Source: Alphaproteobacteria bacterium (lineage in GTDB: Bacteria > Pseudomonadota > Alphaproteobacteria > SP197). Taken from it: a stretch of DNA of 64,000 nucleotides. Position numbers and translations under genes: made by a program. This document shows positions 24,853-27,177 of the stretch, piece after piece. Positions within the stretch are counted from its first letter, which is position 1, and each line of letters begins with the position of its first letter. The DNA lies in contig OZ219747.1 of the NCBI GenBank assembly GCA_964291265.2, forward strand, positions 3,008,001 to 3,072,000, given 5' to 3'. Under the pieces are notes generated by a model that was given only the letters and a program-made list of their open reading frames with translations, did no database searches and was not told where the DNA came from.

Positions 24853-24987
24853 GTGTGCCAGCATCCATGTTTCCCGGCAAGGTTTTTTGCGGGTGTCCGT
24901 GGTGATGTTTTCTGTGGTTGTCCACAGCGGTCTGGGGTTCCGCCTTGTCGATGTTCTTGTCCTGCGAGCGAGGCGACATGCAGCTTG

Positions 24988-25258
24988 TGGTCCCGGCGGC
25001 ATGGGCGGGTTGTTGTCCATTGATCATGGTAACGTTACCGGCGAGTGCGGTCGCTTTGCCGCCGGCGTTCCCGGACATGGTAACGTTACCGTGTTTGATG
25101 AAGTTCCAGGTGTCATGCGTCCCGGCGGCATGAGCGAGTTGCCGTCCATTGATCACGGTAACGTTACCGATGAGCGCGGCCACCTTGCCGCCCAGCGTCC
25201 CCGGGCATGGTAACGTTACCGTGATCAAGGGGGTTCCAGGTGTCATGTGTCCCGTCCG
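24988..25258. repeat. Imperfect ~129-bp tandem duplication containing four GGTAACGTTACC palindromes
   Basis: Palindromes start at 25028, 25079, 25157 and 25209 (spacing 51/78/52). TTCCAGGTGTCATG occurs twice. Confidence 0.85.
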
Positions 25259-25533
25259 TAGCCGCGCGGCGGTTCGATCTCCTCGAGAGCCTCGATGTCG
25301 GCCTCGACGATGATCTGCAGACGTTCTCCGTAAGCCGTGTCGCGCAGGGAGTCGGGAAGACTGTCGAGACAGTCTCGATAATGCTCCTGCAATGCACCGA
25401 GCTCGGCCACCGCATCGCGCCAGCGTTGCGCACGGGAACGACGGTCGCAGGGCTTTCGGTGGTGGACGGCAGGGATGCCGGCCTTGCGGCGTTCCCGATA
25501 ACGGCGCTGCTTCTCGGCAGGGGTGAGGGCCAT
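25243..25533 (-). CDS. 96-aa hypothetical passenger protein of IS110
   Basis: AAGGAG RBS, with the ATG about 30 bp after the transposase stop. Basic N-terminus MALTPAEKQRRYRERRK and an acidic, probably helical C-terminus. Confidence 0.75.
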   Translation of the reverse strand: MALTPAEKQRRYRERRKAGIPAVHHRKPCDRRSRAQRWRDAVAELGALQEHYRDCLDSLPDSLRDTAYGERLQIIVEADIEALEEIEPPRGYGRDT

Positions 25534-25562
25534 GAGGGTGTCTCCTTCGCTCACTCGCAAGG

Positions 25563-26510
25563 TCACGCCGGCGACCGTGCCGGTGCTTCGGGCGACCAGC
25601 AGCGCTGCTGTCGCAGCAAGGTGTTCGCCAGCACGATGAGCTTGCGCATCACGGCGACTATCGCGACCTTGTGGGCCTTGCCGGCGGTCTTGAGGCGCTC
25701 GAACACTCTTGCCAGGTCCGCGTTGAAGCGTGTCGCCGCGGTTGCGGCCATGAACAGGAGATCGCGTGGCCTTCTTCGCCCGCCTCGGATGTGCCGAGCA
25801 CCGTGGTGCTGGCCGCTGTCGTTGGCCATCGGCGCCACCCCGATCAAGGCTGCCGCCTGACGGCGGTCGAGACTGCCGAGTTCGGGCATCCAGCAAAGAA
25901 GGGCCGCGGCGGTCACCGGACCGATACCGGGGATCGAGATCAGGATGCCGTACTTCTCGGCCTGCTCGGGATCACGGGCGATCACCGCTTTGATCTCCGC
26001 ATTCAGCCCCTCAATCCGATCATCGAGATCGTCTGCCGAGGCCCTTGTGACGTTCTCGCCTTCGCCATCCACCTCATCTGCCACCTGCCTCAGCATGGTC
26101 CGCACGTCGACAAGCGCGGTACGCGCCACCAGGAGATCCTCCAGGTTGTTGAGGAAGGCATCCTGAGGAGCTACAGGCTCAAGATCGCCGAGCATCGTGC
26201 CGATCTTGGCCAGCATCAACGCGTCGACGCGGTCGGTCTTGGCCAGATGGCCCAACGCCTCGGCGAAGCGCCGGGCCCGCAACGGGTTGACCAGGACAAC
26301 CTCGAAGCCCCGGTCATGAAGACACTGGTGAACCTTGCGGTGATAGCGACCTGTCGCCTCCATCACCACACGGGTCACCTTGAGGCTGCGAAGCCATGTG
26401 TTCAGCGCCCGCCAGCTCGTGGCGTCGTTCGCAAGACAATGCGTCTGGCCCTCCGCACAGATGTCCAGACTGGCCTTGCTGACATCAATCCCTGCTACTA
26501 CCTTGCCCAT
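25563..26510 (-). CDS. IS110 family transposase / bridge recombinase
   Basis: DEDD RuvC-like residues (GIDVSK, MEATG, KTDRVDA), plus SIPGIG, ANDSG serine and RHIRGGR. Intact 315 aa. Confidence 0.95.
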
Positions 26511-26715
26511 CGTCCCTTGCTCCTCGCCTTATGATGATTCGGTTCAAACCCAGGCATCCATTCAGGACGCAAGGGACGCCAAGGGAGGTTGGCCGACCAA
26601 GCTGGCACACGGCTCCGTAAGGCCAAGGCGAAAACGGTCCGACCAACCTCCGCGGAGATCGTTTGATCCCCGCACCCCGCTCCCCTGTGCTTGATCGCGC
26701 AGGGGAGCGGAATCT
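26511..26715 (-). ncRNA. Predicted IS110 bridge RNA (5' stem-loop, target-binding loop, donor-binding loop)
   Basis: Stems 26677-87/26700-10, 26584-98/26636-51 and 26511-24/26564-78. The loop segments match the target and donor junctions. Confidence 0.8.
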
Positions 26716-27177
26716 CTCTGCAACCATAGACCGGGCCCTCTCCCACAGTCGGGGTTGTCCACATTTTCCCGCCGCCAACCGCTGTGGATGATTGCATCAT
26801 CACGGGGACAAAACCTGGTCATATAAGGCGAACTGGCGGAAGGTAGGGGGTGAAAGTCCCCTGAAACGAAGGAGTAACCAAACCACGTTTCTCCGCGAGC
26901 CGTGCGTCGGTTCCCGCGAGGGGGCAGGCGAAGCGTCGGTAGCGGTACGGATGGGCAGGGCTAATGAGCACCGAAAAGTCCGTTGTTCGGGGTGCCGAGG
27001 CTTTCGCATCGGTCGAAGGCAACATCGCAGGCATCGATTTGGTGAGATGTCGGCGAGCCCCGCGGTGTCGGAGAACCCATGCACGTCCGCACGCCTTCTG
27101 TTGGGACCCTGGGAGGTCTTCGAACTATCCCGCCTGTCGTGGCGGGACCGTGTAGGGAAAGGAGAAAGCCGAAGCCT

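Follow-up and report, generated by a model that had tools for sequence, protein, structure and literature searches.

Three mobile elements are nested in one another in the window (the whole 64,000-nucleotide stretch of DNA analysed here): an IS66-family transposase gene hosts an antisense group II intron, which is itself interrupted at nt 8-9 by an IS110 element. We consider it probable that this IS621-type IS110 arrived by RNA-guided insertion at an AG/CT core, an event likely to stop splicing: the group II intron in question exists in about 30 copies, and the predicted bridge RNA of the element matches its nt 3-14. The original prediction of an IS621-type bridge RNA and of a parasite exploiting another parasite is supported by the comparisons presented here, and its coordinates and the positions that it gave for four loop motifs all proved correct when checked against the sequence.

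Organisation of the nested locus and its predicted bridge RNA

The 5' exon ends with the IBS1 motif GATGCG (24847-24852, plus strand), which is complementary to intron positions 27005-27010 and lies in the IS66-family transposase gene read on the minus strand; pairs of this EBS1-IBS1 type covary in relatives when their sequences are compared. The intron spans 24853-28737. Its first nine nucleotides (24853-24861, plus strand; 27 uninterrupted copies in the genome) read GTGTGCCAG and comprise the GUGYG start and the first copy of the AG/CT core, together forming the right half of the IS110 target; positions 26826-26827 again read AG, and cutting out 24862-26827 leaves an intact intron start. The remainder of the intron (nt 10-1919; 26828-28737, plus strand) is identical to the uninterrupted copies, matches RF02005 at 26853-27077 with 169.7 bits and encodes a 528-aa reverse transcriptase/maturase with a YADD motif (27079-28665, plus strand; PF00078, weak PF08388), in which a Pfam domain search found no endonuclease domain. 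Domains V and VI, with AC at the end, follow at 28666-28737 (plus strand), a boundary common to copies at different sites. With its GUGYG start, AY end, domains D1-D6, reverse transcriptase and EBS1-IBS1 pairing, the target has the features expected of a bacterial group II intron, and its full-length form occurs in 13 near-identical copies in the genome, two of them interrupted by the IS. The frame of the IS66-family transposase resumes across the intron in the 5' part of the gene (28738-29634, minus strand; PF03050). Elsewhere in the window, a PIN-domain gene and an upstream ORF, likely a toxin-antitoxin pair, lie just left of the nested insertion (23377-24478), and a 780-aa IS4/Tn5-like transposase is fused to a DruA-like domain (PF14236; 32149-34491).

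The IS110 element (24860-26827, minus strand, both CT cores included) measures 1,966 bp plus one duplicated core; intact relatives are mostly 1.76-1.90 kb long. Its 315-aa recombinase (25563-26510, minus strand; PF01548 and PF02371) matches IS621 (8wt6) with an E value of 2e-28, and the catalytic residues that the available part of PMC11208158 gives for IS621 correspond to its D9, E51, D93, D96 and S232. The left core is separated from the transposase start codon by 315 bp of non-coding DNA. Judged by its sequence, the element is a member of the IS110 group with an IS621-type bridge recombinase. The element does not fit the IS1111 group, as the guides lie upstream of the transposase gene and not downstream, and no 11-13 bp inverted match between the two ends was seen on reading. 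The right end (24862-25242, minus strand) has the left-donor sequence ATGGATG beside the core and a candidate -35 box; it also takes in part of a 129-bp duplication (approximately 24990-25254), which is imperfect and contains GGTAACGTTACC palindromes. It is followed by an uncharacterised passenger ORF of 96 aa (25243-25533, minus strand) that had no Pfam match, fell into Atlas clusters named hypothetical protein only and has related DNA at about 40 other places in the genome by blastn. When the ends are joined as in a circle, the junction, read by eye, is TTGCCG-17-TATGAC, a candidate promoter; a consensus-promoter scan of the integrated form found none.

Folding of 26511-26715 on the minus strand revealed a strongly structured RNA (-114.4 kcal/mol, z -7.19; equalled by none of 200 shuffles) with four structures, two 5' hairpins and two looped stems, rather than the three stem-loops first described upstream of the transposase. 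The two looped stems of this predicted bridge RNA, one target-binding and one donor-binding, are retained in a consensus fold of 12 orthologues, in which the guides vary and stay unpaired and double changes occur in 7 of 68 pairs; Rfam at its gathering threshold returned only the intron family for the window, and the bridge RNA had no match. In RNA sense, the four loop motifs are TTCGCCT, GTGTGCCAG, ATGGATGC and ATAAG. In the IS621 numbering found in the available portion of PMC11208160, the 14-bp target corresponds to intron nt 3-16. The left target guide TTTTCGCCT (26626-26634, minus strand) matches intron nt 8-16 at 7 of 9 positions, and the canonical 7 nt of the right target guide GTGTGCCAG (26602-26610, minus strand) match nt 3-9 throughout, the first G of this guide being invariant scaffold. 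That the match stops exactly at intron nt 1 is true as a statement about the sequence but uninformative: this outermost G is present in every guide read, and relatives' target positions 15-16 (intron nt 1-2) match at shuffle level (0.53 vs 0.45 of 2; 18,309 of 100,000 shuffles), so that the stop is best seen as a property of the scaffold and the idea of a guide shaped to end at intron nt 1 was rejected.

The expected match of the donor loop to both ends of the element was borne out by the sequences themselves and by one compensatory change in relatives, in which ATAAG accompanies the left end CTTAT and ACAAG accompanies CTTGT. The left donor guide ATGGATGC (26554-26561, minus strand) matches the right end and the core, with 7 of 8 positions invariant in the 12 orthologues, and the right donor guide (26528-26537, minus strand) can form nine pairs with one bulged nucleotide. 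A putative handshake dinucleotide of the donor loop, GC (26526-26527, minus strand), is complementary to target positions 7 and 6 in the IS621 numbering of the accessible part of PMC11208158. Handshake pairing with the non-cognate positions 6-7 is possible for 3 of 4 pairs in the window element, and handshake position 7 follows the target in the intron site of G004b, not in L031 or L022.

In the predicted intron fold, the basal stem of D1 joins nt 6-10 to nt 290-294 (p 0.96-1.0; the same in a 7-sequence consensus), so that the insertion, which also puts the 5' splice site 2 kb away, would split this stem. The GCCAG/CTGGC hairpin noted at the intron start is present in the sequence but does not belong to the predicted intron fold. 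On this structural model, insertion of the IS110 likely inactivates the intron; among the three fates originally envisaged, disabling is thus the likely one, and riding on the intron or acting as an excisable switch are unlikely.

Copies and target sites in the host genome

The genome to which the window belongs (G000; 4.83 Mb in two contigs, C1 and C2) holds four copies of the IS110, 100% identical over 1,968 bp and with identical ends. All four have the CT core at both junctions, and the core is single in the empty site, in agreement with the AG (CT in transposase orientation) first read at the two junctions of the window copy. Three of the four lie at nt 8-9 of group II introns, at two exon sites and in two intron variants: two are in full-length introns whose IS66 hosts have diverged (3 SNPs on the left, 13 on the right, none in the intron), and the third is in an ORF-less intron variant at another exon site. 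Occupation of both exon sites, in full-length and ORF-less introns, bears out the proposal that targeting is independent of exon context. The fourth copy interrupts an adenine methyltransferase gene (PF02086 on an uninterrupted copy) at a site that matches 8 of the 10 variable guide positions. As this copy and another left-end remnant both sit at partial matches outside introns, strict intron targeting does not hold.

A search for uninterrupted introns and for further insertions yielded 40 intron 5'-end matches, comprising 27 exact empty 14-mers, three full IS copies, one remnant (the 14-nt left end of a variant IS at the same core) and nine other variants. The 27 empty introns have the expected start, GTGTGCCAGGCGAA, and each uninterrupted 14-mer in the genome is an intron 5' end. 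The genome offers 28 perfect 12-nt targets, all but one of them (27) at intron 5' ends. That the target lies wholly within this end of the intron is supported.

Among 36 unoccupied intron 5' ends, the IS110 target is affected by small deletions in six (C2:2242635, 1430303, 1454998 and 1456212; C1:28487 and 226541). These are of four kinds, three of which overlap the AG core; only two other kinds of indel occur in approximately 390 nt among aligned close C2 intron copies, and no such target deletion was seen on reading 22 distinct intron 5' ends of relatives. The deletions may represent recombinase scars or escape alleles, and the single-base cases could be sequencing errors.

Several other elements of this genome deserve mention. 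At C2:4158459-4158673 lies the left end of a related IS110, truncated and with another left target guide. An ORF-less mini-intron of approximately 660 nt occurs at C2:857514 and in about 14 further places; its 5' end is 94% identical, its IS66 site is a different one, and it is probably mobilised in trans. A 2.46-kb element (C2:1548216-1550671 and related copies) combines an adenine methyltransferase gene with an ORF that we take to be IS66-like from its motif; the off-target IS110 copy sits in one of the methylase genes of these elements. Approximately 90-150 nt upstream of the methylase, 57 nt are nearly identical to the IS110 left end, a match carried by 13 copies and possibly a captured part of a promoter.

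Guides and landing sites in related elements

The transposase is present in 13 of 101 genomes at an E value of 1e-40, and the close matches all fall within the genus, intact in-genus copies showing 81-83% protein identity; plasmid records yielded only distant IS110s, the best at 47% among the matches listed. Both ends were read for 25 relative elements, which amount to 20 distinct sites and 11 guide pairs once the composite L034 is left out, and 12 guide pairs in all are found among the close relatives. The reason for setting L034 aside is that one guide fits one of its ends and a different guide the other; no intron flanks it, and its inclusion would give 4 of 18 in-genus intron sites. Additional one-ended junctions, none with an intron at the junction, were left out of the counts. 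The relatives keep the RNA scaffold and the element ends, and the CT core is found at the junctions of all 25. With the own genome excluded, guides match their own sites at 8.13 of 10 positions, against 3.81 +/- 0.58 for shuffled pairings (0 of 100,000). This covariation of guide and target offers well-supported comparative evidence, the best available here, that the loop selects the site.

Group II introns account for 4 of 17 distinct in-genus relative sites, located in D1, at the D2/D3 junction, in D3 and at the D5 start. G004a is inserted at intron nt 55-56, four of its five sites being outside introns. G004b occupies intron nt 384-385, the predicted D2/D3 junction, in both full-length G004 introns, which lie at different exon sites; searching its genome for perfect sites of the G004b guide gave no exact and five one-mismatch matches (control, 2). 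In G005 the element interrupts the D3 motif of an intron that is more distantly related (its IEP is 40% identical), and in G010 it lies directly before D5 with a guide match of 10/10, all seven empty perfect sites of this guide being D5 starts (control, 0). One G004 intron holds two different IS110 elements with different guides (L021:2690-6697). Only 3 of 8 inner branches of the transposase tree have support, so the independence of the intron-hitting guides was judged from their differing sequences and positions and not from this poorly resolved tree. From these comparisons, group II introns appear to be a recurrent choice, matched at different conserved positions by at least five guides.

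The intron/IS junction of the window was sought in 33 family genomes and was found exactly in the three own copies and at G003:C34, with one-mismatch matches in six more genomes; neither the transposase nor the intron had a match in G003. The empty 14-mer also begins introns in G005, G010 and G012, at other exons.

Introns are by no means the only landing sites. The G009 guide corresponds to an IS5 site, occupied by four copies, and 16 empty copies of its 12-mer exist; other relative sites lie in or beside TnpB-like, integrase, SRAP, MttB and GMC oxidoreductase genes or are unclassified. Another alphaproteobacterial assembly contains about 50 shortened family copies (L052-L102; 28 with both ends, 1.3-1.6 kb), and there 0 of 28 are in introns and a few repeated sites are reused. 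An intron-only specificity of the family was rejected on the basis of the IS5 guide, the non-intron sites and this second assembly. Given the IS5-hitting guide and the absence of intron insertions among these 28 copies, the family looks tuned to multi-copy mobile DNA and not to introns only.

Proposed mechanism, alternatives and comparison with known systems

By analogy with IS621, the element would form a circle whose joined ends create the candidate promoter described above; the RNA and the recombinase would then pair circle and target, and the core would be duplicated. Insertion at the AG/CT core would split the basal D1 stem of the intron and splicing would likely be lost. In ecological terms, guides of the family may change fast, and those matching an abundant mobile element, with its many harmless landing sites, may persist. 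We tentatively extend this scheme to an IS110 family acting as an RNA-guided hyperparasite, whose target loop may have been repeatedly re-tuned to an expanding host retroelement or IS, hitting essential intron motifs (5' basal stem, D2/D3 junction, D3, D5 entry), braking intron spread and leaving small cut-site deletions in attacked or escaped copies; this possibility is best regarded with some doubt.

The alternative that survives best, and that we nevertheless hold to be unlikely, is that survivor bias alone shaped the observed sites: guides drift randomly, insertion is loose and the copies that persist are those in dispensable repeats, introns among them. The 4 of 17 intron sites represent a marked enrichment against the 1.36% intron share of the own genome (P 7e-5) and a borderline one against multi-copy DNA (P 0.012-0.083), both nulls taking the intron share of the own genome for relatives that are not independent. 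Multi-copy DNA makes up 22% of the own genome, and introns 5.5-10% of that fraction, which favours survivor bias. Only 721 of the 4^10 possible CT-core 12-mers have at least 28 genome copies, which speaks for guided insertion; that 48 of the 721 lie in this one intron family favours chance survival, as does the relatives' average of 8/10 matches, often outside introns. What random drift leaves unexplained is the repeated use of a single nucleotide position (three copies and a remnant here, 2 of 2 in G004, four G009 copies at one IS5 site) and the existence of guides that match 28-copy and 7-copy sites perfectly, as a random guide would seldom do.

A single insertion later spread with the intron, by retrohoming or by recombination between intron copies, seems very unlikely to us. 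It would fit the window copy and that at C2:2594641, which are 100% alike in intron and IS and have related IS66 hosts, the two full-length G004 introns, which hold the same IS at the same position at different exon sites, and the AG duplication, which retains both arms of the local hairpin. Against it stand the third copy, whose intron is a different one without an ORF, and the fourth, which interrupts a methylase gene; these imply that guided insertion happened more than once. Also against it are the splitting of the predicted D1 basal stem, the occupation in G004 of the D2/D3 junction, a catalytic linker, and the emptiness of 27 of the 30 introns with a perfect start. The two full-length copies, or the G004 pair, may yet have arisen by riding or by copying through recombination. 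We give hardly any credence to an excisable switch, in which precise IS110 excision would reset the state of the intron and the IS66 gene under some conditions: with a duplicated core, excising the element precisely would give back the 14-mer, and rejoined target arms are reported for IS621 (cited in the available part of 10.64898/2026.08.31.748434), but IS621 excision is less efficient than insertion (available part of PMC13626964) and mostly copy-out, with the circle approximately 34-fold more frequent than the resealed site (10.64898/2026.08.31.748434, same part), a switch on three copies would change little where intact introns outnumber occupied ones by about 9:1, and splicing would leave the IS66 transposase unrestored because the intron is antisense to its host.

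RNA-guided insertion by a bridge recombinase, the reading that we prefer for the window element, has close precedents. Like IS621 of E. coli, as described in the parts of PMC11208160 and PMC11208158 available to us and in PDB 8wt6, the element has a DEDD and serine recombinase, a non-coding left end with target and donor loops, a CT core in all four guides, a 9-nt left and an extended 7-nt right target guide, a bulged right donor guide and candidate handshake nucleotides. It differs in its target, a group II intron terminus where IS621 targets REP repeats, in its extra 5' hairpin and passenger ORF, and in its protein, which is only distantly similar (E 2e-28). According to the available text of PMC11187229, IS110-superfamily targeting of other mobile DNA (Tn21 terminal repeats, attC, REP) is already known, and IS4321/IS5075 (Tn21 terminal repeats) and ISKpn4/ISPst6 (attC sites), of the IS1111 group, likewise land in a conserved part of another mobile element; these elements bear sub-terminal inverted repeats, place the RNA downstream of their transposase and target DNA recombination sites, whereas the present target encodes the ribozyme structure of a retroelement. 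The same text describes the natural reprogramming of ISEc11/ISXne4, closely related elements that share a scaffold but differ in guide and target, as seen here; the present family differs in offering 12 guide pairs among close relatives, five with intron insertions. ISPpu10 (10.64898/2026.03.19.712850, in the part available) shares a multi-copy target and a hairpin at the target, which in the window IS110 spans the core; an informal look revealed no shared hairpin at the relatives' targets.

In the openly accessible main texts searched on IS110 elements and group II introns, no report was found of an IS110 targeting a group II intron; the accessible portions of 10.64898/2026.10.21.760802, PMC11376236 and PMC6053426 describe none, and the word 'intron' is absent from the text of PMC11187229 and PMC11208160. 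The mechanism would thus be the standard bridge mechanism, applied to a target class for which no description was found in this literature and which, on sequence comparison, appears to recur across a genus. The findings bear on how IS110 guides naturally acquire and change their targets, one small family supplying 12 natural guide pairs with their landing sites. Since several of these match abundant mobile elements of the same genome, selection for multi-copy targets becomes directly testable, and the window element is a ready natural tool, with one guide, 27 identical empty targets and measurable off-targets.

Group II introns are known to home into IS elements, as RmInt1 does in ISRm2011-2. 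The intron of the window, antisense in IS66, resembles that pair, and so does a reverse nesting seen in relatives, in which group II introns lie within the transposase gene of this very IS110 family (L034:1365-3276 in G010; L202:9544-11363 in G015); our main finding differs in its direction, IS110 into intron. That introns also home into this IS110 suggests that RNA-guided recombinase and retroelement are in conflict in both directions.
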